The notes under the pieces: generated by a model
The model's database searches: none
Told to the model about the DNA's origin: nothing
Seen by the model: the letters and a program-made list of their open reading frames with translations, nothing else
Shown here: piece after piece, positions 12,962-29,663 of the stretch
Numbering within the stretch: the first letter of the stretch is position 1
Layout: the number at the start of each line of letters is the position of its first letter
Position numbers and translations under genes: made by a program
Source of the DNA: Candidatus Shapirobacteria bacterium
Lineage (GTDB): Bacteria > Patescibacteriota > Microgenomatia > UBA12405
Direction: 5' to 3'
Assembly (NCBI GenBank): GCA_028704885.1
Contig: JAQWEN010000001.1
Span: forward strand, 587,107 to 651,106
Length of the DNA: 64,000 nucleotides

Positions 12962-13154
12962 TTTTCTTTTCTTGAATAAGAGTTGAGATTAAAGAAATCT
13001 CGTATTTAATTTTTGAGAAGACAGAAGTGTCCTTTTGATTACCAGTGGCTGATTTTGCCTTGGCTTCAATAAATTTCTTGCGAAGATCTAAAAGATTTTT
13101 TAATAGTTCCTCAACACTTTTTTGTCTGTAGGAAATTTTATCAGTTTTTTTCAT
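12945..13154 (-). CDS. rpmC: 50S ribosomal protein L29
   Basis: L29 family, 69 aa. Confidence 0.88.
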   Translation of the reverse strand: MKKTDKISYRQKSVEELLKNLLDLRKKFIEAKAKSATGNQKDTSVFSKIKYEISLISTLIQEKKNDKQN

Positions 13155-13165
13155 AAAATCTACCC

Positions 13166-13567
13166 CTATTTTCGATTAACGATTTTGCACACAACTGGTA
13201 ACTTAGCAGCAGCTAGATTTAAACCTTCTTTGGCTTCGGTTTCAGTGACACCAGAAACTTCGAAGATAATACGACCGGGCTTGACCACGGCGACATAACC
13301 TTTAACATCACCCTTTCCGGCACCCATAGTTCCAGTACCTTTTTCAGTAAATGGTTTATCAGGGAAAATTCGACACCACATACGACCGTTTCTTTTAGTG
13401 GCATGAGCAATGGCCTTACGAGCGGCTTCTAATTGATTGGCAGTAATCCAGCTACATTCGAGAGATTTGAGGCCGTATTCACCAAAAGCAACTAAGTTGC
13501 CTTTAGAATTACCTCTCATTTTGCCTCGGAAGGCTTTTCTGTATTTAGTTCTACTTGGTTGTAACAT
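13166..13567 (-). CDS. rplP: 50S ribosomal protein L16
   Basis: L16 family. Confidence 0.92.
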
Positions 13568-13573
13568 AATTAT

Positions 13574-14215
13574 TTAGCCTAAACATAAATAAACTTTAAC
13601 TCCGATATATCCGGATCTGGTTAGAGATGGACATTCGTGATAATCAATTATTGATCGAATAGTACTTAATGGTACTGTACCTTGAGAAAATTTTTCTCGG
13701 CGACCGATTTCGGCACCATTGATACGTCCAGAAAGAATAATTTTAATACCCTTAGCGCCAGAAGCAATTGATTTTTCCATGGCGGATAAAACAACTCGAC
13801 GATATGGCATTCTTTTGGTTAATTGGAAAGCAATTTTTTCAGCAATTAATTTGGCTGAAAGATCGGCATGTTTGAATTCTTCAACTTGAATTTCAACACC
13901 TTGTTTACCGCTGGCTTTGAAAAGTAATCTTTGAACTTCTTTTTTGATAGTCTCTAATTCTTTACCACCACGACCGATGACTAAACCAGGTCGAGAAACA
14001 ACTAAAATTAATTTCATTTTTTTAACAGAACGTTCAATTCTGATAGAAACGATACCGGCGGAATTAAATTTAGATTGAAGGAAATCTCTAATTTTTTTAT
14101 CTTCTAAAAGATAGATGGCGTATTTTTTAACACCAGCATACCAGGAAGATTGCCATTGAGGGCTGTTTTTGACAGTCTCTAATCTAAAACCAATTGGATT
14201 AATTTTTTGGCCCAT
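13574..14215 (-). CDS. rpsC: 30S ribosomal protein S3
   Basis: KH domain + S3 C-terminal domain. Confidence 0.92.
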   Translation of the reverse strand: MGQKINPIGFRLETVKNSPQWQSSWYAGVKKYAIYLLEDKKIRDFLQSKFNSAGIVSIRIERSVKKMKLILVVSRPGLVIGRGGKELETIKKEVQRLLFKASGKQGVEIQVEEFKHADLSAKLIAEKIAFQLTKRMPYRRVVLSAMEKSIASGAKGIKIILSGRINGAEIGRREKFSQGTVPLSTIRSIIDYHECPSLTRSGYIGVKVYLCLG

Positions 14216-14217
14216 AG

Positions 14218-14703
14218 TTACTTTTGATTACCTTTAACATGAATAATAAGTCGACTGTGTCTTTTTTGAATTAGACCTCTGGCAAATCTGGAACCGTGGG
14301 CTTTATCCATACGTTTCATTTTTAAGCCTTCGTCAACTTTGAGTAGATCGAATTTTAAAGTGTTAGTGTCTAAATTGAAATTATTTTTAGCATCAGCAAT
14401 GACATTTTGAAGAGCCTTGATCATGATACGAGCAGATTTGGTATTGGTAAATTTAAGTCTAGCTAAAGCATCAACTGGGGATAATTTTCTGATGTTATCG
14501 GCTAAAAGTCGCAATTTTCGAGGAGAGATCATAAGATCTTTATTGAAATATTTAGCAATTTTAGTGTGGGATACTTCAACCTTTGGAGTTTCGATAACTT
14601 TTGAAACTGCCTTAACTTCGACCTTTTTAATGTCTTTTTTAACAACAGCTTTTTTAACGGCTGGAGTTTTGACTTTAGTAATTTTTTTAATTTCTTTTGG
14701 CAT
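14218..14703 (-). CDS. rplV: 50S ribosomal protein L22 with Lys-rich N-terminal extension
   Basis: L22 family core. Confidence 0.9.
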   Translation of the reverse strand: MPKEIKKITKVKTPAVKKAVVKKDIKKVEVKAVSKVIETPKVEVSHTKIAKYFNKDLMISPRKLRLLADNIRKLSPVDALARLKFTNTKSARIMIKALQNVIADAKNNFNLDTNTLKFDLLKVDEGLKMKRMDKAHGSRFARGLIQKRHSRLIIHVKGNQK

Positions 14704-14709
14704 AATTGT

Positions 14710-14982
14710 TTACGTCTTTTCAATAACACGTTTAACGACACGTCCGTGACCTTTAAAGGTACGAGTAGCCGAGAATTCGCCTAAGCGATGGCCAACCATA
14801 TCTTCAGTGACATAGACATTAATAAATTTTTTACCATTGTGGACTTCAAAATTTCGGCCAACAAACTCTGGAGGAATCTGGCTTCTTCTGGCCCAAGTTT
14901 TGATGGCCTCATTGCCACCCTTAGCTACTTTTTCAAATAGTTTTTTGTCAATGTATGGACCTTTTTTGGAACTTCTAGACAT
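14710..14982 (-). CDS. rpsS: 30S ribosomal protein S19
   Basis: S19 family. Confidence 0.93.
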
Positions 14983-14983
14983 A

Positions 14984-15727
14984 TTACTTTCGATGCTTAA
15001 TTATTAATCGATTGGAGGCATTTTTACGTTTTCTGGTTTTTTTGAAGGCAGATTTACCCCATGGTGTTTTTGGATGCATACCAATAGAGCTTCGACCTTC
15101 ACCACCACCGTGTGGATGAGAGTGAGGATTTTGAGCCACACCTCTAACGGTTGGACGAATACCACGAAGTCGTGATTGACCAGCTTTAGTTAATTTTTGA
15201 TTTGAATGATCGGAATTACCAACTTGACCAATGGTGGCAAAAGAATCAGCGTTAAAAATTCTGATTTCACCAGATGGAAGTTTAATGGTGGCTTTGTTAC
15301 CATCAATACTTTGAATATAAGCAGCAGAGCCAGCACTTTTAATTAATTGGGCATCTTTGCCTTTTTGAAAAGATAAACAATGAACAGGAACACCAACTGG
15401 AATATTTTTAAGAGGTAAACAATTGCCGTCTTTAATTGGAGCATTAACAGAAGAAACGACAACGTCACCGACTTTTAAACCAGTAGGAGCTAAAATATAA
15501 GACTTAGCACCATCTTCGTAAATTAAAAGAGCAATATCGGCGGTTCGACCAGGATCATATTCAATAGTCGAAACTTTAGCATTAATATCAAGTTTACCTC
15601 TTCTCCAATCAATTTCTCTGATAAAACGCTTTTGTTCACCACCGCGATGTCGGATGGAAACATGACCTTGGTCGTCTCGACCGCTGGTTTTTTTCTTGAT
15701 AGTTAATAAAGATCTAATTCTGGTCAT
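14984..15727 (-). CDS. rplB: 50S ribosomal protein L2
   Basis: L2 family (...GGGEGR...), 247 aa. Confidence 0.92.
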
Positions 15728-15730
15728 AGA

Positions 15731-16027
15731 TTATTTAAGATTGAGTTTTAATAATTCAATTTTGGTATTTTTTTCGACACTAATAATAGCCTTTTTAAGA
15801 TCAGATTTTTTAATTGGTAATCTTTTTTGGCGATCGGTCTTCATTTTACCTTTAACAATAACAGTATTAATATTTAGGGGTTTGACACCGAAAACAGCTT
15901 CAAAAGAAGATTCAATTTGACCTTTGGTGGCATCTTTTTTGACCCAAAAAGCATATTTACCATTTTCTTGTTGTGACAAGGTTTTTTCAGTAAAAACTGG
16001 TTTTAAAACTATTAAATTTGATTGCAT
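15731..16027 (-). CDS. rplW: 50S ribosomal protein L23
   Basis: L23 family. Confidence 0.9.
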   Translation of the reverse strand: MQSNLIVLKPVFTEKTLSQQENGKYAFWVKKDATKGQIESSFEAVFGVKPLNINTVIVKGKMKTDRQKRLPIKKSDLKKAIISVEKNTKIELLKLNLK

Positions 16028-16029
16028 AT

Positions 16030-16665
16030 TTATTTAGATAAAATGTCTAGAGTATCTTGACTAAAAATCAAAAAGTTTTGATTAGAAAGATCGTAAACAT
16101 TTAAAGATTTAAGGGACAAAAGATTAGTTTTAGGAAGATTTCCAAAAGCTCTTTTGAGGTTAGGAATAGTTTCGGTTGTAATTATCCCAACTTTCGAACT
16201 TTTTGATAATACTTCATCTGCAGCTCTAAGTCCAGTGAGTAATTTAATTCCCTCTTTGGTTTTTGGAGCTAATTTTTCAAAAGAATCGATAATTATAATT
16301 TTTTTATCTTGAGCAAATTTAGTAAGAATAGAATTTAAAGCAACGACTTTCATTTTTTTAGAAAGATTAAGTTTGTAGTTTTGAAGACCATCTGGACCCA
16401 TAGCACTACCACCACCGACAAAGATTGGGGCGGTTCGATTACCATGACGAGCACGACCAGTACCTTTTTGGGCATAAACTTTTTGACGAGTACCAGCAAC
16501 ATCAGATCTTGTTTTTGCCTTAGCATAGGAAGATCTTTGGTTGGCTAAATAAACACGAATAGCTTGAGAAATTAATTTTTCGGAAATTTTGGTATCGAAA
16601 ATTGACTTTGGTAAGGCAATTTCTCCAACTTTTTCTGCTTTAATGTTATAGATTTGAGTTTTCAT
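16030..16665 (-). CDS. rplD: 50S ribosomal protein L4
   Basis: L4 family. Confidence 0.92.
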   Translation of the reverse strand: MKTQIYNIKAEKVGEIALPKSIFDTKISEKLISQAIRVYLANQRSSYAKAKTRSDVAGTRQKVYAQKGTGRARHGNRTAPIFVGGGSAMGPDGLQNYKLNLSKKMKVVALNSILTKFAQDKKIIIIDSFEKLAPKTKEGIKLLTGLRAADEVLSKSSKVGIITTETIPNLKRAFGNLPKTNLLSLKSLNVYDLSNQNFLIFSQDTLDILSK

Positions 16666-16667
16666 AG

Positions 16668-17288
16668 TTAGATGGTCTTTTTGAGAGTAATCCAGGAGTT
16701 GAAATGACCGGAAAATGAACCACTAATTAATATTTCGTTAGTTTCAGGATTAATAGAAATTATTTTTAAATTTTCAATGGTTTTATTAACATTACCAAAA
16801 TGACCTGGCATTTTTTTACCACGGACAACTTTACTTGGAGTTTGAGCACCAATTGAACCAGGATGTCGAACACGATCGGAAGCACCTAAAAGAGGTTGCT
16901 TTTTGAAGCCGTGTCGTTTGATAACACCAGCAAATCCATGACCTTTGGAAATACCGGTAGCATCAACTTCCTCACCAACAGTAAAAACGGTATCAATAGA
17001 AATATTGCTACCAATTTCAGGAATTTGGTCGGAAGTTAAATCAAATTCTTGAAAACCCTTTGGAAGAGTTTCAATTTTTAATTTGGTTAACTTGGTAGAA
17101 GTGGACTTATCGAGCTTTTTTCTTTCACCATAGGCAACTTGAACAGCTTGATAGCCATCTTTTTCTTGATTTTTAATTTGAGTGACAGTTAATGGTTTAG
17201 CAATACATTTAGTAACGGCAATTCTTTTGCCGTCTTCGGTGTAGATGCTGGTCATTTGACCTTTTTTGACAAGAAATCCTGAAATCAT
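16668..17288 (-). CDS. rplC: 50S ribosomal protein L3
   Basis: L3 family. Confidence 0.92.
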   Translation of the reverse strand: MISGFLVKKGQMTSIYTEDGKRIAVTKCIAKPLTVTQIKNQEKDGYQAVQVAYGERKKLDKSTSTKLTKLKIETLPKGFQEFDLTSDQIPEIGSNISIDTVFTVGEEVDATGISKGHGFAGVIKRHGFKKQPLLGASDRVRHPGSIGAQTPSKVVRGKKMPGHFGNVNKTIENLKIISINPETNEILISGSFSGHFNSWITLKKTI

Positions 17289-17292
17289 AGTT

Positions 17293-17604
17293 TTACATTT
17301 TAACTTCTATTTCCACACCAGAGGGTAAATCTAAATGCTGAAGACTATCCACAGTTCGAAGACTGGTATTCGAGATATCGATAAGTCGCTTGTGAGTAAG
17401 TATTTGGAAATGCTCACGAGCATTTTTGTCGGTATGAGGACTAGTTAGAACAACAATGGTTTTTCTCTCAGTTGGTAAAGGTATTGGACCTTCCACTTGA
17501 GCACCAGCAGTAACCACAGTCTCAACGATCTTCATCGCTGCTTCATCGATAATACGATGATCGAAAGATTTTAATCGAATACGAATGCGGTTACCTTTGG
17601 CCAT
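17293..17604 (-). CDS. rpsJ: 30S ribosomal protein S10 (start [12 protein letters not shown]; ORF track start at 17643 overlaps tuf)
   Basis: S10 family N-terminus begins at the internal Met, which removes the overlap with tuf. Confidence 0.9.
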
Positions 17605-17608
17605 ATAT

Positions 17609-18781
17609 TTATTTGATAATTTCTGTAATAGCACCGGCACCAACGGTTAAGCCACCTTCTCGGATAGCAAATCTTTGGCCTGGTTGCATAGCTACAGGTT
17701 TAATTAATTTAATAATAACGTTAGTATTATCGCCTGGCATAACCATTTCAGTACCTTCTGGTAGAGTAATGTCGCCGGTTACATCAGTAGTTCTGATGAA
17801 AACTTGAGGGCGGTAACCACTAAAAATTGGGGTATGTCGACCACCTTCTTCTTTTTTAAGGAGAAGAACTTCAGCTTTGAATTCAGTGTGAGGAGTAATT
17901 GAACCTGGTTTGGCTAAGACTTGACCTCTTTCGATATCATCTTTTTCAACTCCGCGGAGCAATAATCCAACGTTATCACCAGCTTGACCTTGATCAAGAG
18001 ATTTCTTAAACATTTCCACACCAGTAACAACAGCTTTTCGAGTGTCTTTTAAACCAACGATTTCAATTTCATCGTTGACTTTAACGGTACCTTTTTCAAT
18101 TCTACCGGTAGCAACAGTTCCTCGACCTTTAATGGAGAAAACATCTTCAATTGGCATTAAGAAAGGTTTGTCAAATTCACGGACGGGTTCAGGAATGTAA
18201 GTATCAAGAGCTTCCATCAATTTCTTAATAGATTCAACACCATCAGCATCACCATTGAGAGCCTTGAGAGCTGAGCCACGAATAATTGGAGTTTCGTCAC
18301 CTGGGAAGCCGTATTTAGTTAATAAATCACGGATTTCCATTTCGACTAAGTCTAAAAATTCAGGATCAGTAACGAGATCACATTTATTTAAGAAAACGAC
18401 CAAAGATGGAACGTTAACTTGTTTAGCTAACAAAACGTGTTCTCTGGTTTGAGGCATAGGACCGTCTGGTGCAGAAACGACGAGAATAGCTCCGTCCATT
18501 TGAGCAGCACCAGTGATCATGTTTTTGACATAATCAGCATGTCCTGGACAATCGATGTGAGCGTAATGTCTCTTCTCAGTTTCGTATTCGATATGAGAGA
18601 TAGCAATAGTAACGATTTTAGAAGCATCACGAACTGTACCACCCTTAGCAATATCTGCATAGGATTTTCCACCACCTTGAATTTTAGAAATAGCGGCGGT
18701 TAAAGTTGTCTTACCATGATCAACGTGACCGATAGTACCGACATTGACGTGTGGCTTATTTCTTTTAAAAGTATCTGCCAT
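17609..18781 (-). CDS. tuf: elongation factor Tu
   Basis: [10 protein letters not shown] ... DCPGHADY GTPase motifs, 390 aa; AAGGAG RBS. Confidence 0.95.
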
Positions 18782-18854
18782 TTGATTTTTCTCCTTTTTA
18801 TGTCTTTTTTTAGACGAAATACTAAATTAATAATTTAGATTAAAATGCTTTTAG

Positions 18855-18883
18855 ATTGTACCAGCTGTACTAAAGCTTTGCAA
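18855..18883 (-). promoter_or_regulatory. sigma70-like promoter for tuf (TTGCAA-17 nt-TACAAT on minus strand)
   Basis: -35 at 18878-18883, -10 at 18855-18860 (reverse complement). Confidence 0.4.
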
Positions 18884-18990
18884 CATACAAAACGTAGCAA
18901 TTTAATGCTGATTTTAGAAAATAATTTATCTAAATCGAGTTAACCAAAATTTTAACATAAATAAAGAGAAAAAGTTTGATGATGAAAATA

Positions 18991-19037
18991 AAAAAAAGGC
19001 CTCAAACGTTAATGTCAGTAAACTGACTGTTTGAGGC
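18991..19037 (-). terminator. rho-independent terminator after the 19056-19568 gene
   Basis: 9 bp stem GCCTCAAAC/GTTTGAGGC with nested hairpin, followed on the minus strand by T8. Confidence 0.6.
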
Positions 19038-19055
19038 ACTTTAAGTGGAATAAAA

Positions 19056-19568
19056 TCAGAAAGGAATGAGAGTGAAGTAAGTATAAGGGCCTTCATCGAG
19101 AAAGTCAGCATAGTAAAGAACCCCTTCAATAATACAAAGACTGCCAGGAAACATCAGATTCATTGAATAACTTTTAACAGTAGTTCTTTTGTTTTTTTTT
19201 GAAGGTAAAAGACTAAAATTGTTCGTAAGATCAAGATCATTAAAGTTAATGAAAGTTATTTTTATTTTAGGACTAGCTTCCAAAAAAACTCGAAAAGGTA
19301 AATATTGCCAACCACTGTTAAAAAAAGAGAAGACATAGCAGCCATATTCAATAGAGGAATGAACTCTAAAAAAATAACTATCATCGGTTATAAGAAAATT
19401 TATGTCATCGGATTTATCTTCTGGACGGGATTGATTGTTGGTTACCACCTCATCAGCGTTTTCTTTCTCAATGTCTTGATTGTCCTTGGAATTAGGCAAT
19501 TTTGATTCTAAAGAGAAATTATTTTTATTGATTTCGAACCAAACGCAAATGTCTGGATAATTTGCCAT
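19056..19568 (-). CDS. hypothetical protein (170 aa) inserted between fusA and tuf; start MANYPDI with AAGGAAGG RBS
   Basis: Own RBS and own terminator; acidic low-complexity middle region; no recognisable family. Confidence 0.55.
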   Translation of the reverse strand: MANYPDICVWFEINKNNFSLESKLPNSKDNQDIEKENADEVVTNNQSRPEDKSDDINFLITDDSYFFRVHSSIEYGCYVFSFFNSGWQYLPFRVFLEASPKIKITFINFNDLDLTNNFSLLPSKKNKRTTVKSYSMNLMFPGSLCIIEGVLYYADFLDEGPYTYFTLIPF

Positions 19569-19673
19569 GGGTGATAACACTTCCTTCCTTTTATATATTT
19601 TATTCTAGATTTTTAAGGTTCTTGCTGGCAAGTATATTCTTTTTAATTTTGATTGTGAAGAAGGTATTTAATT

Positions 19674-19704
19674 AAAAAAAATACCCCCGAATTAACGGGG
19701 GTAT
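19674..19704 (-). terminator. rho-independent terminator after fusA
   Basis: ATACCCCCG-loop-CGGGGGTAT hairpin followed on the minus strand by T7. Confidence 0.65.
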
Positions 19705-19725
19705 TCAAATTTCTAGAAATTTTAG

Positions 19726-21828
19726 TTAACCGTTGGTTTTGGTGGTTAATTTTTCTTGAATATCACGAGGAACGGGATCATAACGGCAAGGTTCCATGTA
19801 GAACGATCCTCGGCCTTGAGTTAAGCTTCTGATGACAGTAGCGTAACCACCGATGGCTTCTAATGGAACGAAAGCATGAATGGTAGTAAAACCATGACTG
19901 TCTTCAGTACCATTGATTTGACCTCGACGGCTGGAAAGATCACCAATGACAGAGCCTAAGAATTCAGATGGAGTATTAACTTCAAATTTCATAATAGGTT
20001 CGAGGATTAGAGGTTTAGCGGCAGCAAAAGCATCTTTAATAGCGTAATTTCCGGCTAGTTTGAAAGCCATTTCAGAAGAATCGACTTCGTGGTAAGTTCC
20101 ATCGTAAACAGTGACCTTAATATCAGTGGCTGGGAAACCAGCAATAATACCTTTTTGAAGAGTTTCTTTGACACCTTTTTCAATAGCAGGAATGAAGTTG
20201 GCGGGAATAGCACCACCTTTGACGCCATTAATGAATTCATAACCTTCCCCTCTTCCTTTTGGTTCAACATGAATTTTACAATGACCATATTGACCATGAC
20301 CACCTGATTGGTGAATATATTTACCTTCACCATCAGCCTTGGCAGAAATAGTTTCACGATAAGCAACTTGAGGAGAACCGGTCTTAACATTGACGCCGAA
20401 TTCTCTTTTTAAACGATCAACAATAATTTCAAGATAAAGTTCTCCCATACCGGCAATAATAGTTTGACCAGTTTCTTGGTTATAAGTGACTCGGAAAGTA
20501 GGATCTTCAACAGCTAAACGATTTAAAGCAGCTCCCATTTTTTCTTGATCATCAGCGGTAGCTGGTTCAATAGAAAGAGAAATAACTGGTTCAGCAAATT
20601 GAATTGGAGAAAGAGAAATAATATTGTTAGCATCGCAAAGAGTGTCACCAGTGGTGGATTCTTTTAAACCGATACAAGCAACGATTTCTCCAGCAAAACC
20701 TTCTTCAAGACCTTCTCTTTTGTCAGCATGCATCAAAAGTAAACGACCAATGCGTTCAGATTTCTGTTTAGTAGTGTTGTAGACTTCAGTTCCGGCTTTT
20801 AAAGTACCAGAATAGACACGAACATAAGATAAAGTTCCAACGTGTGGGTCGGATTGAACTTTAAATAATAAAGCTGATAGTGGTTCAGTTTTAATTGGTT
20901 TTCGAGTGATAACATCGTTGGTTTCTGGATCATATCCTTCAATTGGAGGTAAATCTAAAGGGGAAGGAAGGTAATCAACGATACCATCGAGAATTGGATG
21001 AATACCTTTATTTCTCCAAGCAGCACCACAATAAACAGGGAAAAGTTTTCGATCAATAGTAGCTTTTCTAAGAGTGGCTTTTAATTCTGGAATAGAAATT
21101 TCTTGATCATTTAAAAATTTTTCCATAAGAACTTCATCTTCACCAGCAATTCTTTCAACCATAAGAGCTCGAGCCTTAAGAGCTTTATCTTTGTATTCAT
21201 CAGTGACTGGTTTTCGAGTAAATTCCAAACCTTCTTCGTCCTTATCGTAGACAATCATTTCCATATTCATCAAATCGACGACACCAATATGGTCATGTTC
21301 TTCGCCGACAGGAATAACGACGGGGCAAATTGGGGCATGAAGCTTTTCAGTAATACTATCGAGAGTGCCTTGAAAAGAAGCACCAATTTTATCCATTTTG
21401 TTAACAAAAGCGATTCGAGGGACACCATATTTGTCGGCTTGTCGCCAAACAGTTTCAGATTGAGCCTGAACACCGGCATTAGCATCAAAAATCATAATGG
21501 CACCATCAAGAACACGAAGAGAACGTTCTACTTCGGCAGTAAAATCGACATGTCCCGGAGTATCAATAATGTTCAAACGATAATCTTTCCAAAAAGTAGT
21601 AATACAAGCAGATTGAATAGTGATACCACGTTCTTTTTCTTGAACCATAGAATCGGTGGTAGTTGAACCTTCGTCAACAGAACCAATTTTGTGGATTTTT
21701 CCAGTATAAAAAAGAATACGTTCAGTAGTGGTAGTTTTACCACCGTCGATATGGGCGATAATTCCGATATTTCGGACTTTATCCATAGGTACGTCGCGAT
21801 TTTTAGTAAGTTTAATTTGTTCAGCCAT
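19726..21828 (-). CDS. fusA: elongation factor G (start MAEQIKLT; ORF track extends to 21870)
   Basis: AHIDGGKTT ... DTPGHVDF GTPase motifs and EF-G domains II-V. Confidence 0.95.
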   Translation of the reverse strand: MAEQIKLTKNRDVPMDKVRNIGIIAHIDGGKTTTTERILFYTGKIHKIGSVDEGSTTTDSMVQEKERGITIQSACITTFWKDYRLNIIDTPGHVDFTAEVERSLRVLDGAIMIFDANAGVQAQSETVWRQADKYGVPRIAFVNKMDKIGASFQGTLDSITEKLHAPICPVVIPVGEEHDHIGVVDLMNMEMIVYDKDEEGLEFTRKPVTDEYKDKALKARALMVERIAGEDEVLMEKFLNDQEISIPELKATLRKATIDRKLFPVYCGAAWRNKGIHPILDGIVDYLPSPLDLPPIEGYDPETNDVITRKPIKTEPLSALLFKVQSDPHVGTLSYVRVYSGTLKAGTEVYNTTKQKSERIGRLLLMHADKREGLEEGFAGEIVACIGLKESTTGDTLCDANNIISLSPIQFAEPVISLSIEPATADDQEKMGAALNRLAVEDPTFRVTYNQETGQTIIAGMGELYLEIIVDRLKREFGVNVKTGSPQVAYRETISAKADGEGKYIHQSGGHGQYGHCKIHVEPKGRGEGYEFINGVKGGAIPANFIPAIEKGVKETLQKGIIAGFPATDIKVTVYDGTYHEVDSSEMAFKLAGNYAIKDAFAAAKPLILEPIMKFEVNTPSEFLGSVIGDLSSRRGQINGTEDSHGFTTIHAFVPLEAIGGYATVIRSLTQGRGSFYMEPCRYDPVPRDIQEKLTTKTNG

Positions 21829-21853
21829 TAGATTTATAAAATATAATAAAAAA

Positions 21854-21876
21854 CCGTTGCATTGAAGCAACAGCGG
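21854..21876 (-). promoter_or_regulatory. hairpin + T-tract on minus strand ~25 nt upstream of fusA start (attenuator, or terminator of antisense read-through)
   Basis: CCGCTGTTGCTTCAATGCAACGG followed by TTTTTTATTATAT on the minus strand. Confidence 0.35.
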
Positions 21877-21958
21877 ATGGACTTATGATACCATGGGTAA
21901 ATATAAAACAAAATCCCTCTAAATCTACCTTTGATAAAAGGGAAACTTATAATTAATT

Positions 21959-23167
21959 ATGAAAAAAAATGTGGCAATAATCGGGGCGGGAATTGGCGGA
22001 TTAACCGCCGGTTATGAACTGACTAAAAAAGGATATAAAGTAACTGTTTTTGAAAAAAATAAAGAAATTGGCGGTTTATTGTCGGATTTTAAAATTGAAG
22101 GCGAAAGTTTAGAAAAAACTTATCATCATATTTTTAAAACTGATAAAGAAATAATTGGTTTAATCGAAGAATTAGGATTAATTGATAAATTAAAATGGCA
22201 TAAAAGTTCCGTATCTCTTTTTTATAACGATAAATTTTACCCATTTTCAGGCGCAATTGATTTATTAAAATTTGGGGAATTGGATTTAATTTCTAAAATT
22301 AGACTGGGAATGATTTATTTGTGGTTAAAATTTGATGGAAATTGGAAAAAATATGAGAAAGTTACCGCTTCAGAGTGGATGGAAAAATGGGCGGGAAAAA
22401 GGGCTTATGAGGTGATTTGGAAACCGTTATTAAAAGGTAAATTTCATGATTATAACGATAAAGTATCAATGGCTTGGCTGTGGGCGAGAATTCATACTAG
22501 AGGCGGATCAAAAGGTGGGCCAGCCGACGCTAAAGCTATGGCGGGTAAAGAAGTGTTGGGTTATATGAATGGTGGATTTGGACAGATTAATAACAAATTG
22601 GCCGAAAAATTGGGAATAAAAACTGGAATTGAAGTTGATATTAAAAATTTAGAAAAAGAATTTGATTTGATAATCGATACTAGACCGATTAAAAATATTG
22701 ATTATATTGGAGCGGTGGATTTGATTTTTTCATCAAAACAAAGCTTAAGTAATTTCTATTGGCATAACATTAATGATTTAAAATCCCCTTTCTTGGTGTT
22801 GGTACAACATACCAATTTAATGGGGAATAAAAATTACAATGGCAAAAATATTTACTATTTAGGAACCTATGTGCCACAGGACCATAAATATTTTAAAGTC
22901 GATGACAGAGAAATTGAAAAAGAATTTTTTGATTATTTAAAGAAAATTAAACCGGAATTTGATGAAAAACAAATTTTGGAAAAGAATATTTTTAAGTTTA
23001 AGAATGCCCAGCACATCGTTAATACAAACTATAAAGTGCCGGATTATAAAGTTGGAGAAAAAATATACAATTTAAATTTTGCCCAAATTTACCCAGAGGA
23101 TAGGGGGATTAATTTTGCCGTAAAAGAGGCAAAAAGGTTGGTGGAAATGATTAATAAAGAAAATTAA
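21959..23167 (+). CDS. FAD-dependent oxidoreductase (amine-oxidase / UDP-galactopyranose-mutase-like superfamily)
   Basis: N-terminal dinucleotide-binding IIGAGIGGLTAGYEL...VFEK...GG; HHIFKTDKEI resembles the UGM HIFHT motif; 402 aa. Confidence 0.55.
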   Translation: MKKNVAIIGAGIGGLTAGYELTKKGYKVTVFEKNKEIGGLLSDFKIEGESLEKTYHHIFKTDKEIIGLIEELGLIDKLKWHKSSVSLFYNDKFYPFSGAIDLLKFGELDLISKIRLGMIYLWLKFDGNWKKYEKVTASEWMEKWAGKRAYEVIWKPLLKGKFHDYNDKVSMAWLWARIHTRGGSKGGPADAKAMAGKEVLGYMNGGFGQINNKLAEKLGIKTGIEVDIKNLEKEFDLIIDTRPIKNIDYIGAVDLIFSSKQSLSNFYWHNINDLKSPFLVLVQHTNLMGNKNYNGKNIYYLGTYVPQDHKYFKVDDREIEKEFFDYLKKIKPEFDEKQILEKNIFKFKNAQHIVNTNYKVPDYKVGEKIYNLNFAQIYPEDRGINFAVKEAKRLVEMINKEN

Positions 23168-24042
23168 GGAGCAGTAGTTCCAGTTAAAATCCAATTATAA
23201 AGAATGATTTGATTTAAAATCATGTCAGCAGATTTTTGCGGATCAATTTCAGCCATTAAAAGACCAGTTTTTATTCCATATAAAGAAGAAATGACCTCGG
23301 TATTTTGACTATCTTCTTTTAAGAGATATTCTTTTTCTACAATATGGCCAAGCTCGTGCATGCTAGTTTTAATAACAGATGGGTCATCTATCTTTAGTTC
23401 ATTAATCATAATAATATGTCCAGCTGGATTTTTGTGGTCTATTTTTTCTGAAAGTCCTTGTTTTTCAATATCACTTAAAATTTCTGGAGTTGAACTATAT
23501 CGGTCTTGATGGATACCTAAAATGTCCTTCATTCCTGAATTTAGATGACTATATATATTGCCATTTTTTAGTTGAGAGTAAAGCTTAGGGTAATCCTGAA
23601 ATGGTTCAATAATTACAGGCGTATCAGTATTATTAGTGATAGTTTCAGAAATTTTAGTGATGATCTCTAAATTAGAAGATTTTTTTGATTCGCTTATAAT
23701 TGATTCGATTTTTGGAAAAATTTTATAAGGATCAGGAATATTTTCAACAGCATCAATAACTGAAATATATTCATAAGATCCTTTATATTGACCAAATATA
23801 GTTTCTGTTATTGTATTTTTTTCAGCACATTTTGGAAAATAATGAATATTTGTAGATTTTGACGCTTGCTGATCATAATACTCATAATTTTGGTAAATAT
23901 CTGTTAAAACTTTACTTAAAACCTGATGATCTTTACGATTTGGATCAAGAGTGTCTAATTGTTTTTTAAGAGATTCTTGACGATTTCGATCAACTTCTAC
24001 TTCTTTTATTGGTGGTTTAAACCCATCCACATTACCTTCCAT
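23164..24042 (-). CDS. hypothetical protein with HExxH zinc-metallopeptidase motif (SMHELGHIVE)
   Basis: HELGH near C-terminus; start overlaps rfbD stop by 11 nt. Confidence 0.45.
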   Translation of the reverse strand: MEGNVDGFKPPIKEVEVDRNRQESLKKQLDTLDPNRKDHQVLSKVLTDIYQNYEYYDQQASKSTNIHYFPKCAEKNTITETIFGQYKGSYEYISVIDAVENIPDPYKIFPKIESIISESKKSSNLEIITKISETITNNTDTPVIIEPFQDYPKLYSQLKNGNIYSHLNSGMKDILGIHQDRYSSTPEILSDIEKQGLSEKIDHKNPAGHIIMINELKIDDPSVIKTSMHELGHIVEKEYLLKEDSQNTEVISSLYGIKTGLLMAEIDPQKSADMILNQIILYNWILTGTTAP

Positions 24043-24928
24043 AATTAGTTTGGTTTTTAATTTCTTCTAAACCTTCAGCAAGAGTTTTGAAATTTAGACC
24101 GAGAGATTTTACTTTTTCATTTGAAGTAATTAGAGTTTTTTGCCAAGGACGACTGCCTTCCGGTTGAGATTTTATAAATTCATCGAGACTGGAAGCAGAA
24201 ATTAAATTTTTATCAAAACCAAAAACTTCGGCAACTTTTAAACACATGTCATAAGGTGAATGAGAAGATGAACCGACTAAATGATAAATACCGGTAGTTT
24301 TGTGATCAATAAAATAAGCCAAAGCAGCGGCAATATCATCAATAAAAGTGTAAGTGCAAATTTGATCGGAAAACATTTTAACTTCTTCTTTATTCTTTAG
24401 TTTGGCAATAACTTTGCGGATAATATCGACTTTGGTTTCGAAATCAGAGCGATAAGGATAGGTAATACGAGAAATATTGTAGTTGTTATAATCAGAATCA
24501 GTAATTACTTTTTCGCCTAGATATTTAGTTTCACCGTACCATTCAATTGGAGTGGGAATATCAGTTTCCAGATAAGGAGTGGATTTAGTGCCATCAAAAA
24601 CAAAATCAGTGGAAATATAGATTAACTGTTGATTATATTTTTGGGCTAATTCTAAAATATTTTGAGTACCGACAACATTGAGTTGATAACAAAGACCATC
24701 CTTGTTATTACGTTGTTCCCAGGCAGCATTGGTATCGGTAAAAGCGGCCAAATGAAGGACAGCGATAGCATCACTGTTTTGGCTGAAAGCTGCTGAAAGG
24801 TTGGCGGCATCGAGAATATTAACGCCAGTATCAAGAGAAAAATCAACAAATTCAAATTTGTCTTTTAATAGTTCGACAATACGAGAACCAACTAAACCTG
24901 AAAGACCTGTTCCAATTATTTTTTGCAT
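24032..24928 (-). CDS. rfbD: dTDP-4-dehydrorhamnose reductase
   Basis: RmlD family sequence with N-terminal Rossmann GTGLSGLVG. Confidence 0.8.
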   Translation of the reverse strand: MQKIIGTGLSGLVGSRIVELLKDKFEFVDFSLDTGVNILDAANLSAAFSQNSDAIAVLHLAAFTDTNAAWEQRNNKDGLCYQLNVVGTQNILELAQKYNQQLIYISTDFVFDGTKSTPYLETDIPTPIEWYGETKYLGEKVITDSDYNNYNISRITYPYRSDFETKVDIIRKVIAKLKNKEEVKMFSDQICTYTFIDDIAAALAYFIDHKTTGIYHLVGSSSHSPYDMCLKVAEVFGFDKNLISASSLDEFIKSQPEGSRPWQKTLITSNEKVKSLGLNFKTLAEGLEEIKNQTNYGR

Positions 24929-25002
24929 ATATTAATCCTCTCTGTCCCTCGAAAAGCTCGGGACATCTCCCCTTAACAAAGGGAGAATTCTTTAATTATT
25001 AA

Positions 25003-25557
25003 CTAAAATATTTCTTGATTTTTAATTTCTGAAAGAGTGGGCCAGAGTTTATCTTTTTCTGACAAAATTATGTTTTCAATTTGAGGCCAGTCAATTTTTA
25101 ATTCTGGATCATTCCATAAAATTCCGCCTTCTGATTCTTTGTTATAAAAATTAGAGCATTTATATTGGAAATCAGCAATATCGGAAAGAACTAAAAAAGC
25201 ATGAGCAAAACCCTGGGGAATAAAAACCATCCTTTTATTTTCTTCACTAATTAAAATTGCTTCGTGTTGGCCAAAAGTTGGAGAATCTTGGCGAATATCA
25301 ACAGCGACATCGAGAACTTCGCCACGAGTACAACGAACTAACTTATCTTGAGCAAAGGGAGGTTTTTGAAAATGAAGGCCACGAAAAACACCTTTGGTAG
25401 ATTGGGAATGATTATCTTGGACAAATTCAATATCAATACCATTTTCGGCAAAAACTTTTTTGGAATAGGTTTCCATAAAAAAACCACGATCGTCAGTAAA
25501 AACTGATGGTTCAATTATAATCAATCCTTCAAGTTTGGTTTTGAGAAAATTTGGCAT
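25003..25557 (-). CDS. rfbC: dTDP-4-dehydrorhamnose 3,5-epimerase
   Basis: RmlC cupin sequence (...RGLHFQ...). Confidence 0.85.
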   Translation of the reverse strand: MPNFLKTKLEGLIIIEPSVFTDDRGFFMETYSKKVFAENGIDIEFVQDNHSQSTKGVFRGLHFQKPPFAQDKLVRCTRGEVLDVAVDIRQDSPTFGQHEAILISEENKRMVFIPQGFAHAFLVLSDIADFQYKCSNFYNKESEGGILWNDPELKIDWPQIENIILSEKDKLWPTLSEIKNQEIF

Positions 25558-26567
25558 TATTTATTTAAACTATTTAATTTAATGTAAAATTCTTCGGCTT
25601 CTTTTTTGGTTTCCTGCCACCAAATTTGATTCTGAGTATACCAATCGACGGTTTGTTTCATACCAGATTCGAGATCATACTTTGGCTCCCAACCTAATTC
25701 TTTATTAATTTTATCCCAATTTACGGCGTAATTATCATGAGCTGGACGATCGGCGACGTATTCCAAAGAATCTTCACCTTTATTCATTAATTTTAAAATA
25801 AGTCGGACTAATTCCATGTTACTAGTCCCTTTTTTAAGACCACCAATGCAATAAGTTTCACCTATTTTACCGTTTAATAAAATAGCTTCGATGGCCCGAC
25901 AATGATCTTCAACATGAAGCCAATCACGGAAATTTAGACCTTGACCATAAACTTTGATCTTGCCACCACTTAAAAGACTGGTGATAGAACGAGGAATCAT
26001 TTTTTCGGGATGCTGGAAAGGACCGTAGTTATTAGAACAATTACTAATAGTCACAGGCAAACCGAAAGTTTTAAAAAATGAGCGAACTAAATGATCAGAA
26101 GAAGCTTTGGAAGCGGAATAAGGGCTGGAAGGATCGTAAGGAGTGGATTCGTTGAATTGATCAGTAGAATCTAGCTCAATGGTACCAAAAACTTCATCAG
26201 TAGAAATATGATGAAAACGCTTGATTTGATATTTTTTAGCAGCCATTAAAAGATTGTAAGTGCCAAGGACATTGGTGCGGACAAAAAGAGAAGGATCATC
26301 AATGGAACGATCGACGTGGGATTCAGCGGCAAAATGGACAATAGTGTCAACTTGAGAAACTAACTCATCAACGATTTTTTCATCTAAAATGTCACCTTTA
26401 ACAAATTTGTAATTCGGAGAGTTTTCAAATTCAACTAGATTGCGAGGGTTAGCAGCATAAGTCATCTTGTCGAGATTGATGATGGAATCTTCGGGATGAT
26501 TTTTGAACCAGTACTTAATAAAATTTGAACCAATAAAACCTGAACCGCCGGTGATTAAAATTTTCAT
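25557..26567 (-). CDS. rfbB: dTDP-glucose 4,6-dehydratase (start MKILITGGSGFIGS)
   Basis: SDR extended family, GGSGFIGS and YxxxK (YSASKASSD). Confidence 0.88.
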   Translation of the reverse strand: MKILITGGSGFIGSNFIKYWFKNHPEDSIINLDKMTYAANPRNLVEFENSPNYKFVKGDILDEKIVDELVSQVDTIVHFAAESHVDRSIDDPSLFVRTNVLGTYNLLMAAKKYQIKRFHHISTDEVFGTIELDSTDQFNESTPYDPSSPYSASKASSDHLVRSFFKTFGLPVTISNCSNNYGPFQHPEKMIPRSITSLLSGGKIKVYGQGLNFRDWLHVEDHCRAIEAILLNGKIGETYCIGGLKKGTSNMELVRLILKLMNKGEDSLEYVADRPAHDNYAVNWDKINKELGWEPKYDLESGMKQTVDWYTQNQIWWQETKKEAEEFYIKLNSLNK

Positions 26568-26817
26568 AGTAAGCCAATTGTAATTCAAGAGAGGTGTCTA
26601 TTGCAAGTTTAGGTTTAGCCTTATAAATTGACTATTAACCTATTATAGGATATAATTGGTCTAAGTTTGATGTATTTTTAGGTTAAAAGCTGATTTAAAA
26701 AATTCATCAGTACATTTAAAATCAGATTTGTTGAATAGATTTTAATGAGCGGAAATGTGTTCCCCTATTTGAGGAATAGATTCCCGTTCATTAGAATGAG
26801 GAGAAAGAAGAGAAATA

Positions 26818-27120
26818 ATGGAAGATACTAAGATTTATGTCAAAGAAAATGTCTCAATGTTTTGTCCAGAAATAAACCCAGAAGAAAGAAATAATATTCC
26901 ATTGTCGTCATTGTTAGATCTTTCTTTTATTAATGTTTGGAAAAAAAGTGAATCGTTTATCCGATTCATGTGTTCTAGTTCTAAACTATATGACCATTTA
27001 ATGGTCGAATATGACATAGGAGGAATAAAAAATTTCCTGATTGTTGCAATTATTTGCCCAGGAAACGTCCTTCGAGAATTAGATCTGCCAGAGTTCAATC
27101 ACAAAGACTATCTACGATAG
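26818..27120 (+). CDS. hypothetical protein (100 aa)
   Basis: GAGGAG RBS upstream of ATG; no family recognised. Confidence 0.4.
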   Translation: MEDTKIYVKENVSMFCPEINPEERNNIPLSSLLDLSFINVWKKSESFIRFMCSSSKLYDHLMVEYDIGGIKNFLIVAIICPGNVLRELDLPEFNHKDYLR

Positions 27121-27271
27121 TAAATTTTTATTTCTCCTCTCTTGTCTATTTAACATTTTTGAAAAACCCCGGCGGGAAAGTGATGCATGAGCATTCATTT
27201 TTCTAGTCGGGTTTTTTATTTGAAAAAAAATCCCCCGCTTTCACGAGGGATTTAAATTGTTAGTTAAAAAC

Positions 27272-28693
27272 TTATTCTTCAGCTTCAGTCGGAGTAGCAG
27301 ACTTGGTTGAAGTCTTAGTGACAGTTGGAGTCACTTTGGTGGTTGCAGAAGCACCAGTGCTTAGATCGGTACCGATAGTGAAAACCGCATCATAGGTGGC
27401 AGTTTTAGTTAGATCAGTAGTATAAGTGGCTGGGAAATCGGTAACTAAAGCTGATTCAAAATAAGCTGAAGTACTGGCTGATTTAACACTAACTGAATTT
27501 TCAGTAGCATTGGTTTTAGCATTACCGACAGCAATATTTTCAAAACCCAATTTAGTTAACATGGCTTTGACGGTGGCGGCTTGACCATTAATGTCGGTAG
27601 CATTTAAAACTTGGATTTTAATGGTTTTATCTATTTCAGCAATAGTCGGAGTTGGAAGTGGAATTTCGGTTGGAGTAATAGTGGTTTCGACAATTTCGCT
27701 AGTATCAGCGGGAGTTTCAATTTCACTGGTATTTCGGTTTAAAACAACCCAAATTATAATTGAAGCGAGAGCAGCAGTAAAAATAAAAACTGCGATAATA
27801 GGGAGGATATTCTTTTTTTTGTTTTCCATATTTTTTTTAGGTGAACTAATATTGGTTGGTGATCCTATTATATCAGTATTATGGGTGATGGAGGTAGATA
27901 TTTCACCTAAGACTGGCAGAGGTAAATTGGAGGCTTTGGAAAGACTTTGGGCAATTTGAGATTCGTTATAAACGGTTTTGTCCATTTCAGTAGTGGTAAT
28001 TATTTCTAAATCGCGACCCTCGGGAATATAAATTTTCTTGGTAATACTGGAAAAATAAAAATTTGAATAATTGACTATTTTCTGGATGTCAAGACTTGGG
28101 CCTTTAAGATTGATAGTTAAATAAACTGAATTATTTTTGGAAAGAAGAAGAGTATATTCTTGATCGTTTAAAGGATAAATTAGAAAAAATTCTTGTTTAT
28201 AAATTGAAGAAATAGTATTGGAGATGGCAGTGGAAACGGAAGTTATTTGGCTAATTTTGACACCAATTACACTTAAATTTTCTTTGAGTTGATCTAATTT
28301 AGGTTTATCATAAATAAAAGACTGAATTATTGTTTTGTCGTTAACTTGGGTTATTTTGTAATCAAGTGCATCGGGATCGATTTTGAAATTGACTAAACTG
28401 GCAGCCAAACTAATGACTTCTTTTTTATCAATAGTTTCAATCTTAGTATCGTAAGTAAAAGACTTGGTAAAAACAACATCATCAGGAATTAAAACAGAAA
28501 CTGAATCAAATTTATTTTGTTTAAAATATAGGATTAGGGATTCGAGATCTTTGTCGCTGCATTTTTGCCAAAGATTAAGATCGAAACTTAAGGTGTTATT
28601 TTCCTTGCGATCAATATAAAGTTCGACCGTTTTAGACTTCGGCCACAAAGTGAGTTTTGGTTTGGAGAACAACGACATAGTTAAGTATAACAA
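27272..28693 (-). CDS. membrane-anchored hypothetical protein: cytoplasmic N-domain, one TM helix, extracellular LytR_C-like domain and Thr-rich tail
   Basis: TM ILPIIAVFIFTAALASIIIWVVL; C-terminal IKIQVLNATDINGQAATVKAMLTKLGFENIAVGNA resembles LytR_C. Confidence 0.5.
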   Translation of the reverse strand: MLYLTMSLFSKPKLTLWPKSKTVELYIDRKENNTLSFDLNLWQKCSDKDLESLILYFKQNKFDSVSVLIPDDVVFTKSFTYDTKIETIDKKEVISLAASLVNFKIDPDALDYKITQVNDKTIIQSFIYDKPKLDQLKENLSVIGVKISQITSVSTAISNTISSIYKQEFFLIYPLNDQEYTLLLSKNNSVYLTINLKGPSLDIQKIVNYSNFYFSSITKKIYIPEGRDLEIITTTEMDKTVYNESQIAQSLSKASNLPLPVLGEISTSITHNTDIIGSPTNISSPKKNMENKKKNILPIIAVFIFTAALASIIIWVVLNRNTSEIETPADTSEIVETTITPTEIPLPTPTIAEIDKTIKIQVLNATDINGQAATVKAMLTKLGFENIAVGNAKTNATENSVSVKSASTSAYFESALVTDFPATYTTDLTKTATYDAVFTIGTDLSTGASATTKVTPTVTKTSTKSATPTEAEE

Positions 28694-28734
28694 AAACGCC
28701 CCGAGTGGGGCGTTTTAAAAAGTTTTAAATATTT

Positions 28735-29217
28735 TTACCAACGGAGATGGGCAAAAGCCTTATTAGCATCGGCCATTCTTTCGATTTCAAGTCTTTTATT
28801 GACAGCAGCACCTTCATTATTAAGAGCAGATAGAAGTTCAGCCACTAATTTTTCAGCAAAAGAATGATATTGCTTGTTAGCTTTGGCACGAGCAGCAGAA
28901 ATGAGCCAGCGAAGAGCTAAAGAACTTTGACGAGTACCACGGACTGGAGTTGGAACTTGATAAACAGCTCCACCAATTCGGCGGGGTCTGACTTCGATTT
29001 TTGGTCGAATGTTTTCTAAAGCTCGATCGAGAACTTCAACGACATCTTCTTTAGGAAATTCTTTTTTAAGCAAATCAAGAGCATCATAAACTTGTTTTTC
29101 AGCAGCAGTTTTTTTGCCGTCTTTTAAACAAGCATTAATTATTTTGCTAATAGTAACATTGCCATAGATAGTATCTGGAAGTACTTCTCTAGTTTTATTG
29201 ATTCCTTTTCTGGACAT
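28735..29217 (-). CDS. rpsG: 30S ribosomal protein S7
   Basis: S7 family. Confidence 0.93.
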   Translation of the reverse strand: MSRKGINKTREVLPDTIYGNVTISKIINACLKDGKKTAAEKQVYDALDLLKKEFPKEDVVEVLDRALENIRPKIEVRPRRIGGAVYQVPTPVRGTRQSSLALRWLISAARAKANKQYHSFAEKLVAELLSALNNEGAAVNKRLEIERMADANKAFAHLRW

Positions 29218-29240: not shown

Positions 29241-29663
29241 TTAAGCGGTTTTGGCGACAGCTTTCTTGGCACCATATTTACTGCGGGACTGCATACGTCC
29301 AACAACGGCACCAGCGTCGTATTTACCACGAATAATACGATAACGAACACCTGGTAAATCTCTAACTCGGCCACCTTTGATACTAACGATACTGTGTTCA
29401 GCCAAATTATGACCAACACCAGGAATATAAGCGGTAACAGAAGCGTGATTGCTAAGTTTGACCTTAGCAATTTTTCGCAAAGCTGAGTGTGGTTTCTTTG
29501 GAGTCATAGTTTTGACAGAAATAACCACTCCTTTTTTAATTGGATTTATATTGAGGGTTGGTCGATTAGTAATGGTATTAAAACCATTACGAAGAGCAAC
29601 TGTTCTGAGCTTTTGAGTTCTCTTGGTTCGACCAGTTTTGATTAGTTGATTAAATGTTGGCAT
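29241..29663 (-). CDS. rpsL: 30S ribosomal protein S12
   Basis: S12 family. Confidence 0.93.

Follow-up and report, generated by a model that had tools for sequence, protein, structure and literature searches.

We analysed a stretch of 64,000 nucleotides (the window) from a metagenome-assembled genome (MAG) of a Candidatus Shapirobacteria bacterium (contig JAQWEN010000001.1 of GCA_028704885.1), in which the str operon is split between rpsG and fusA. These two genes are contiguous in most bacteria. In the window they are separated by 6.9 kb of rhamnose-sugar and cell-envelope genes, and the gene order on the minus strand is rpoB, rpoC, rpsL, rpsG, the gene for a membrane protein with a LytR_C domain (the LytR_C protein), a spacer, rfbB, rfbC, rfbD (rmlB, rmlC, rmlD), the gene for a protein with an HExxH motif, fusA, tuf, rpsJ and rplC (Table 1). 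Between the HExxH gene and fusA, a flavoprotein gene lies on the opposite strand; it is divergent from fusA and convergent with the HExxH gene, with which it shares 4 nt at the 3' ends. An earlier reading of the sequence (the original prediction) had already described the split, the intervening block and the convergent flavoprotein gene, and its coordinates and gene list agreed with the list of open reading frames (ORFs). It had also counted a small plus-strand gene. An ORF of 100 aa does exist there, but it had no family match in Pfam, NCBIfam, PHROGs or PADLOC and no homolog in relatives; given its place in the spacer and its lack of conservation, its status as a gene is doubtful and it may not be one. 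Over the whole window, Rfam at gathering thresholds and a tRNA scan returned nothing. A second Candidatus Shapirobacteria MAG (GCA_028685145.1, contig JAQUEN010000003.1, locus L001) encodes an identical HExxH protein, and the 21 kb around it match the window gene for gene.

Table 1. Features of the rpsG-fusA region and its flanks, in the order of minus-strand transcription (positions in the window).
Feature	Position	Strand	Basis
rpsL	29241-29663	minus	ORF
rpsG (ribosomal protein S7), last str-operon gene before the block	28735-29217	minus	ORF; Pfam Ribosomal_S7 on the identical gene in L001
Terminator-like hairpin directly 3' of rpsG, GC-rich stem and T run	28693-28716	minus	-15.1 kcal/mol
LytR_C membrane protein; ORF of 473 aa (27272-28693), 468 aa from the ATG at 28678	27272-28678	minus	PF13399
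Terminator-like hairpin 3' of the LytR_C protein gene	27228-27253	minus	-15.2 kcal/mol
Variable spacer	26589-27227	none	Contains the non-conserved 100-aa ORF
100-aa ORF in the spacer	26818-27120	plus	ORF only; no family, no homolog
rfbB/rmlB, dTDP-glucose 4,6-dehydratase, 336 aa from ATG; ORF reaches 26588	25557-26567	minus	TIGR01181
rfbC/rmlC, dTDP-4-dehydrorhamnose 3,5-epimerase	25003-25557	minus	TIGR01221
rfbD/rmlD-like reductase	24032-24928	minus	Pfam RmlD_sub_bind
HExxH protein, 292 aa, orphan, zincin-like	23164-24042	minus	ORF; motif
FAD-dependent oxidoreductase (flavoprotein), 402 aa, NF005560 (PRK07233)	21959-23167	plus	NF005560 score
fusA leader: -10-like box, hairpin and U run	21853-21893	minus	Alignment, folding
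fusA (EF-G), 700 aa from the probable ATG at 21828; ORF 19726-21870	19726-21828	minus	Pfam EF-G domains on the identical L001 gene
Strong intrinsic-terminator-like hairpin 3' of fusA	19679-19706	minus	11 pairs, 6 GC, then TTTTTTTAATTA
174-aa ORF between fusA and tuf	19056-19580	minus	No family
tuf	17609-18781	minus	ORF

We asked how far this arrangement extends among relatives. Contexts were gathered in four ways: through homologs of the HExxH protein, by a scan for rpsG with one genome per species, through homologs of the flavoprotein, and by profile searches of the fetched loci. The frame of rpsG, the LytR_C protein gene, rfbB with whatever follows it, the convergent flavoprotein gene and fusA was found in 13 independent lineages from NCBI, ENA, JGI and Logan assemblies (the window with L001, L003, L006, L007 with L010, L011, L012, L013, L014, L090, L094, L095, L096 and L097). 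Over these lineages, identity to the window was 78-91% for RpoC, 64-88% for S7, 41-75% for the LytR_C protein and 50-71% for the flavoprotein. The rpsG scan did not select for block genes; it relied on exact peptide patterns and returned mostly unrelated bacteria, leaving about 12 informative loci. It showed the block in all five loci with an S7 identity of at least 64%, and no homolog of the LytR_C protein, the flavoprotein or the HExxH protein in loci with an S7 identity of 54% or less. The arrangement was also present in five of the six contexts reached via flavoprotein homologs. The conserved frame is thus composed of the LytR_C protein, a dTDP-6-deoxyhexose unit (always rmlB, usually with rmlC and rmlD) and a flavoprotein of family NF005560 divergent from fusA.

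The original prediction had read these genes as an island planted in the operon and had proposed a synteny comparison with related Patescibacteria genomes. That comparison showed the frame to be shared across the lineage rather than specific to the window and, because the same arrangement is essentially universal in the lineage, it argues for a lineage trait and not for an island. The block genes have a GC content of 0.29-0.36 and a third-position GC content (GC3) of 0.16-0.30, inside the range of other window genes. The block contains no tRNA gene in the tRNA scan and no integrase or transposase family match in Pfam or NCBIfam, and a search for repeats flanking it gave just low-identity AT-rich matches at chance level. 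These data suggest that the block is probably ancient, has been passed on vertically and is characteristic of Microgenomates of the Shapirobacteria type, rather than being an acquired island. We found no description of this arrangement in the literature on Shapirobacteria, on rhamnose and LytR in the Candidate Phyla Radiation, or on PRK07233.

More distant genomes, in which RpoC is about 51% identical, carried their own unrelated genes at the rpsG-fusA junction. Among them, the junction held an OmdA-like gene (L019), a tRNA-guanine transglycosylase (TGT) gene (L021), or an ECF sigma factor gene and further genes (L018, where fusA is over 10 kb distant); gaps of 0.1-0.5 kb were seen in L015-L017. 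Proteobacterial controls from the same scan (Reyranella and others) had rpsG and fusA adjacent, with gaps below 250 bp. Because unrelated genes occupy the junction in other lineages, it seems to be generally permissive in this part of the tree, and its specific content seems to define the Shapirobacteria-type clade. We noticed that the record titles 'uncultured Gammaproteobacteria' and 'Pseudomonadales' of several loci (L010, L015-L019 and L021, third-party annotation MAGs) look wrong. L010 has the same block and S7 and RpoC proteins 88-91% identical to those of the window, which does not fit its title, and in L015-L019 and L021 RpoC is colinear and about 1240 aa long, in contrast to the controls from Proteobacteria.

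Both ends of the frame stay constant: rpsG is followed by the LytR_C protein gene, and the flavoprotein gene diverges from fusA. The middle differs by lineage. It consists of rfbB alone in L090, of rfbBCD in L011, L094 and L097, of rfbA-rfbBCD in L013 and of rfbBCD-rfbA in L096; rfbBCD is accompanied by 2.6-5.4 kb of ORFs without families in L012 and L014, and by the HExxH gene in the window, L003, L006, L007 and L095. The slot after rfbD is thus taken by rfbA in L096 and by the HExxH gene in the window. In the compact genomes (L013, L090, L094, L096 and L097), the gap between rpsG and the LytR_C gene is 17-50 bp and free of hairpins, and that between the LytR_C gene and the next gene is 2-73 bp (2-14 bp to rmlB where the two are adjacent), suggesting that a single transcript may run on from rpoBC-rpsLG through the block; this co-transcription is a prediction from gene spacing. 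In the HExxH-bearing subclade, a spacer of 0.6-1.5 kb with non-homologous small ORFs splits the LytR_C gene from rfbB. A hairpin followed by a T run was found after rpsG in the window, L003, L007, L012 and L095, and after the LytR_C gene in the window, L003 and L007, so that L095 has it only after rpsG; in L006 no such hairpin was detected after either gene. We also considered a decayed rmlA in the 680-bp spacer, for which there was no tblastn signal.

The LytR_C protein lies directly after rpsG in all 13 lineages. Its sole Pfam match was to PF13399 (34.6 bits against a cutoff of 22.2) over residues 357-442, after a transmembrane (TM) helix. The extracytoplasmic LytR_C-like domain and Thr-rich tail named in the original prediction are therefore both present, the tail being Thr/Pro-rich and predicted to be disordered. 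An AlphaFold (AF2) model built from an alignment of 44 homologs shows a single-pass protein with confident domains at residues 1-263 and 355-435 (pLDDT about 90 or above), a TM helix at about 292-315, disordered Thr/Pro-rich linkers and a disordered Thr-rich tail. When the model was compared with the PDB using Foldseek, it matched PilM (5eq6, E = 1.5e-12), FtsA (3wqu, E = 6.5e-10) and cyto-EpsL/GspL (1yf5, E = 9.8e-9, with a TM-score of 0.57-0.58 normalised to the target), and Ppx/GppA and Hsp70 ranked after these. Because of these matches we assign the N-terminal half, as modelled, to the actin-like (ASKHA) fold of the PilM/FtsA/GspL kind. No sequence model of PilM, GspL or FtsA in Pfam or NCBIfam matched the protein at E < 0.01, and PDB sequence searches with the protein or its profile gave nothing significant.

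The overall plan resembles GspL of type II secretion and PilM (with PilN) of type IV pili: about 260 aa of actin-like fold in the cytoplasm, a single TM helix and, on the outer side, a small alpha/beta domain. As in GspL, no Asp-x-Gly phosphate-binding motif is visible in the first beta-hairpin (KLTLWPKSKTVELYI), suggesting that the protein is probably a non-enzymatic, GspL-like scaffold rather than an ATPase. Unlike PilM and GspL, it matches none of their sequence families, its outer domain is of the LytR_C and not of the PilN/GspL type, its gene follows rpsG, and no secretion or pilus genes were seen among the scanned window ORFs upstream of rpoB or in the 10-kb flanks of relatives. The outer half resembles VirR (Rv0431) and Cei (Rv2700) of Mycobacterium tuberculosis, which also combine a TM helix with an extracytoplasmic LytR_C domain and have no LytR_cpsA_psr (LCP) transferase domain; weak PDB matches to 6q10 and 2m5y were obtained, and the Cei model NF035953 gave a weak match that spans the TM helix and LytR_C (33.1 bits, cutoff 150). 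The LytR_C protein differs from both in its additional 263-aa cytoplasmic actin-fold domain and Thr/Pro-rich linkers. VirR and Cei have no catalytic activity; LytR_C mediates the interaction of VirR with LCP ligases, and wall integrity and permeability are influenced by the two proteins (PMC11832169). Pfam found no LCP transferase domain in the LytR_C protein. The 'LytR-type attachment' of the original prediction is therefore unsupported, since LytR_C is not the LCP transferase domain: the protein has just the non-catalytic LytR_C domain, together with an N-terminal half of actin-like fold. We give an even chance to the view that it is a GspL-style trans-membrane connector that links a cytoplasmic partner to the wall.

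The gene rfbB is present in all 13 lineages. The encoded RmlB passed the NCBIfam equivalog TIGR01181 (461 bits, cutoff 365.1) and RmlC passed TIGR01221 (257.1 bits, cutoff 155.75), and the RmlD-like reductase matched Pfam RmlD_sub_bind with 158.7 bits (cutoff 27). The set was thus correctly described before as a dTDP-rhamnose branch that has no rfbA in the window. It resembles the rmlABCD operon (rfbBDAC in enterobacteria) in these matches and in its adjacent, co-oriented genes. Unlike that operon, it has no rmlA in the window, one relative has rmlB alone, its RmlD falls short of the equivalog cutoff, and it is set in the rpoBC-rpsLG/fusA-tuf region instead of a polysaccharide cluster with glycosyltransferases. 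In two relatives, L013 and L096, rmlA is found within the block.

The flavoprotein is a full member of NF005560 (PRK07233; 385.5 bits, cutoff 252), a family labelled 'hypothetical protein', and has the Pfam domains Amino_oxidase and NAD_binding_8. It is paired with fusA in every lineage with fusA in view, L092 included. Among the best 120 homologs listed, none falls below 57% identity to it; where a source is named, it is called Shapirobacteria or, in a few cases, Woesebacteria, and several homologs are annotated 'protoporphyrinogen oxidase' in their source records. The original prediction had proposed that the enzyme may resemble UDP-galactopyranose mutase (UGM, Glf), had named galactofuranose with a question mark, and had suggested a profile comparison of Glf/UGM with protoporphyrinogen oxidase (PPOX) and CrtI. 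In this comparison, a profile of 33 sequences matched the PDB sequences of PF1083 (3nrn, 2e-12), PPOX (1sez, 3e-12), phytoene desaturase (5mog, 4e-9) and E. coli UGM (1i8t, 2e-8). The first three align to the N-terminal 170-230 residues only; UGM aligns over residues 7-326 (about 80%) and leaves the C-terminal 75 residues unaligned. Neither PPOX TIGR00562 (57.4 bits against 97.85) nor TIGR02731 (37 against 569) reached its cutoff, and no GLF domain (PF03275) was found in the flavoprotein at E < 0.01 or among the best 120 homologs listed.

UGM and the flavoprotein have in common a GR2-type FAD-binding N-terminus (NAD_binding_8) and the motifs RIxxR, GG(Y/F) and N.xD...P(Y/F)..(I/L)(I/V)(E/Q)H, and R170 in the mobile loop of UGM aligns to the invariant R177 of the flavoprotein. 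In E. coli UGM, R278 is the essential Arg that binds the UDP diphosphate. When PYTRIIEH of 1i8t is aligned to SPFL(V/A)L(V/I)QH of the flavoprotein family, this Arg stands opposite V280 (Val or Ala). Without the GLF domain and the diphosphate-binding Arg, and with PF1083, PPOX and phytoene desaturase all giving better E-values than UGM, the flavoprotein is not a UGM by any defining test that we ran on the sequence, and galactofuranose synthesis is unsupported; the protein may be distantly related to the UGM fold. The protein also matched the PADLOC candidate-defence model PDLC01086 ('C3a186', C-3',4' desaturase) with 134 bits, which probably reflects the same flavoprotein superfamily rather than a role in defence.

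The HExxH protein had no match in Pfam, NCBIfam, PHROGs or PADLOC. The overlap of its gene with rfbD, noted before, was confirmed: its start overlaps rfbD by 11 nt in the window, and overlaps of 1-11 nt recur in all five HExxH-bearing lineages. Homologs are rare, with 21 among 5.8 billion clusters and 32 cluster representatives among 1.84 billion in a profile search, and among the fetched loci the protein is limited to the subclade of the window, L003, L006, L007 and L095. Across the family of 21 sequences, H229, E230, H233 and E236 (HELGHxxE) never vary, E249 hardly does, and a C-terminal YNWxLTGTxAP motif is conserved. The AF2 model is confident (pLDDT 90), but comparison with PDB folds gave no match (best E 0.2), and PDB sequence searches with the protein or its profile gave nothing significant. 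The hints obtained were weak: phage 'zincin protease' and IrrE matches in BFVD (E 0.009-0.13), Pfam Peptidase_M78 in 7 of the 21 family members (best E 0.006), and a weak structural match to the M78-like regulator PrpR (6cyy). The protein thus resembles ImmA/IrrE (Peptidase_M78) in having HExxH and a conserved Glu 16 residues further on; it differs in that there is no adjacent helix-turn-helix repressor, the first 200 residues resemble nothing known, and the matches are below significance.

Distant members of the HExxH family carry the domain at the C-terminus of proteins of 575-3515 aa, most of which have an N-terminal membrane anchor and in which Pfam found one Big_2 domain only, so the domain is probably extracellular there. 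The stand-alone protein of the window has no signal peptide and no TM segment in its sequence. We read it as a putative orphan hydrolase of the gluzincin type that would have been recruited into the rml unit in one subclade.

The intergenic region between fusA and the flavoprotein gene is 130 bp long. Upstream of fusA we found an extended -10-like box, TGGTATCAT, at 21893-21885. Its core, TGnTATCAT, does not vary among the loci whose aligned sequence spans the box (the window, L011, L090, L092 and L003). About 10 nt downstream of the box and 25 nt before the fusA ATG lies a hairpin with a U run. The hairpin is stable in five lineages (-10.4 to -13.3 kcal/mol, z -2.4 to -3.9), and L011 and L090 retain it with different stem sequences. 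It could act either as an attenuator or as a 5'-terminal stem-loop with a stabilising role. With the flavoprotein gene on the other strand, simple read-through from rpsG into fusA is not possible. The terminator and the upstream hairpin of its own that the original prediction had ascribed to fusA were both found (19706-19679 and 21874-21853, respectively).

The gene content, synteny, folds and hairpins above are observations; what the membrane protein, the zincin and the flavoprotein do biochemically is inferred throughout. The likely scheme is as follows. RmlB, RmlC and RmlD would convert dTDP-glucose to dTDP-L-rhamnose for a surface glycan, with dTDP-glucose supplied by an RmlA encoded elsewhere. 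The membrane protein would act as a GspL-like scaffold that ties a cytoplasmic partner through LytR_C to the cell wall or to wall-assembly proteins, and would in this be comparable to VirR and Cei. In compact relatives, the block genes, spaced 2-50 bp apart, would probably be co-transcribed with rpoBC-rpsLG, behind which they lie. In the subclade of the window, the block would be cut into units by the hairpins after rpsG and after the membrane protein gene and by the variable spacer, with the zincin gene added after rmlD, and fusA would rely on its own promoter, conserved leader hairpin and terminator. A fuller version, in which the actin-fold/TM/LytR_C protein is an undescribed GspL-like scaffold specific to Shapirobacteria, co-transcribed in compact genomes with the RNA polymerase and ribosomal genes, that couples its partner to the assembly of the 6-deoxyhexose (rhamnose-type) surface glycan, and the flavoprotein and zincin are accessory enzymes, seems to us quite unlikely; the flavoprotein might then be a UGM-fold enzyme that acts on a dTDP-sugar.

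Several observations weigh against reading the block as an inherited unit with such a role. L092, whose EF-G is 95% identical to that of the window, retains the flavoprotein-fusA pair alone, beside different genes; therefore, a genome can do without the block as a unit. Block proteins were the route to most contexts, which biases the sample to block-bearing genomes. Co-transcription and terminator function are predictions. As to the pathway, the RmlD-like protein scored 147.7 bits with TIGR01214, below the equivalog cutoff of 224; tblastn with the RmlA of L013 found no rfbA/rmlA in the 64-kb window; and in L090 rmlB stands alone, an argument against rhamnose itself being the product that is conserved. 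Nor does a type IV pilus gene lie nearby that would link the parts in a single pathway. The block and the scanned window ORFs upstream of rpoB showed no gene for a glycosyltransferase, a flippase or an LCP protein, and therefore the complete 'glycopolymer module' of the original prediction is not present here. In L092 itself (11337-18412), we noted that the flavoprotein gene is followed by a BtpA-family gene, a gene for a 1516-aa protein with a faint PRTase-CE match, and a phosphoglucose isomerase gene.

The synteny could be neutral: functionally unrelated genes would have come to rest at an insertion-tolerant rpsG-fusA junction in Patescibacteria and have been frozen there by descent. The unrelated genes at the same junction elsewhere (TGT in L021, the OmdA-like gene in L019, the ECF sigma factor gene in L018), the likewise variable fusA-tuf gap, the freely varying middle of the block, and the flavoprotein that stays with fusA in L092, where the rest is gone, all agree with this view. 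It accounts less well for the zincin gene, which overlaps rmlD, and for the LytR_C protein gene and rmlB, which lie 2-14 bp apart in compact relatives and are kept together down to 41% identity of the LytR_C protein; this pairing therefore outlasts the usual survival of a chance adjacency. We consider neutral synteny unlikely.

A recently acquired island, in which one glycopolymer module (rhamnose, galactofuranose made by UGM, and a LytR-type ligase) was inserted into the str operon, is very improbable. The genes do break up an operon whose members adjoin one another in most bacteria, and rpsG and fusA do so in our controls; the GC content of the block is slightly under that of the flanking translation genes, and E. 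coli UGM aligns over most of the flavoprotein, sharing RIxxR and HIF-like motifs. But the same frame recurs in 13 lineages down to 78% RpoC identity, the composition is within the range of the window's other non-ribosomal genes, no att-like repeats, tRNA gene or mobility genes were found, neither an LCP catalytic domain nor a GLF domain is present, and UGM Arg278 aligns to Val or Ala. The source is a MAG, but the probability of an assembly or binning artefact, a chimeric contig joining ribosomal genes to unrelated DNA, is negligible, as the sequence is identical in the NCBI MAG and a Logan assembly and the order is the same in independent ENA, JGI, NCBI and Logan assemblies from different samples.

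Other parts of the window and of related loci deserve mention. The fusA-tuf junction (18782-19725) is also interrupted, by a 0.9-kb gap with the 174-aa minus-strand ORF (19056-19580), which has no family and no match in PHROGs or PADLOC. The content of this site in relatives is unrelated: five small ORFs in L003, a 213-aa ORF in L097, and a YafQ/ParE-type toxin pair with ORFs of 552 and 271 aa in L094. The fusA-tuf gap thus gives the str/S10 region a second site with variable insertions. Upstream of rpoB (36844-38752) there is no rplKAJL cluster; this segment encodes a 238-aa protein with weak Cys-rich Pacifastin/VWC-like matches and, divergently, a protein with UPF0004 and radical-SAM domains (MiaB/RimO-like). 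Four successive minus-strand ORFs at 40127-45950 (262, 904, 390 and 376 aa), some of them overlapping, have no Pfam match at all. At 49203-52090, an ORF of 723 aa without a Pfam match is overlapped at its end by a sortase gene, and the two could be a pair of sortase and substrate or pilin. The sole mobile-element-like genes seen in the window, for a KilA-N domain protein (46261-47076) and for a protein with a weak IS200-like Y1 transposase match (58763-59338), are both distant from the block.

Two over-annotations are corrected by these results: a LytR_C domain does not imply an LCP ligase, and a flavoprotein with an NAD_binding_8 domain is not necessarily a UGM. NF005560 is a widespread family that is called 'protoporphyrinogen oxidase' in several records, though its member here is below that equivalog cutoff. 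Once relatives are examined, the synteny itself is ordinary, and the real puzzles are the GspL-like/LytR_C fusion, the fusA-tied NF005560 flavoprotein and the very rare zincin domain. These three proteins, the first of them encoded right behind ribosomal genes, merit study of their structure and biochemistry, in organisms that defy cultivation; the zincin domain deserves it as a very rare domain that also caps large surface proteins. For the lineage, the rpsG-fusA and fusA-tuf junctions, which are fixed in most bacteria, are open to insertion in this group, and the block provides a clean synteny marker for a lineage of Patescibacteria.

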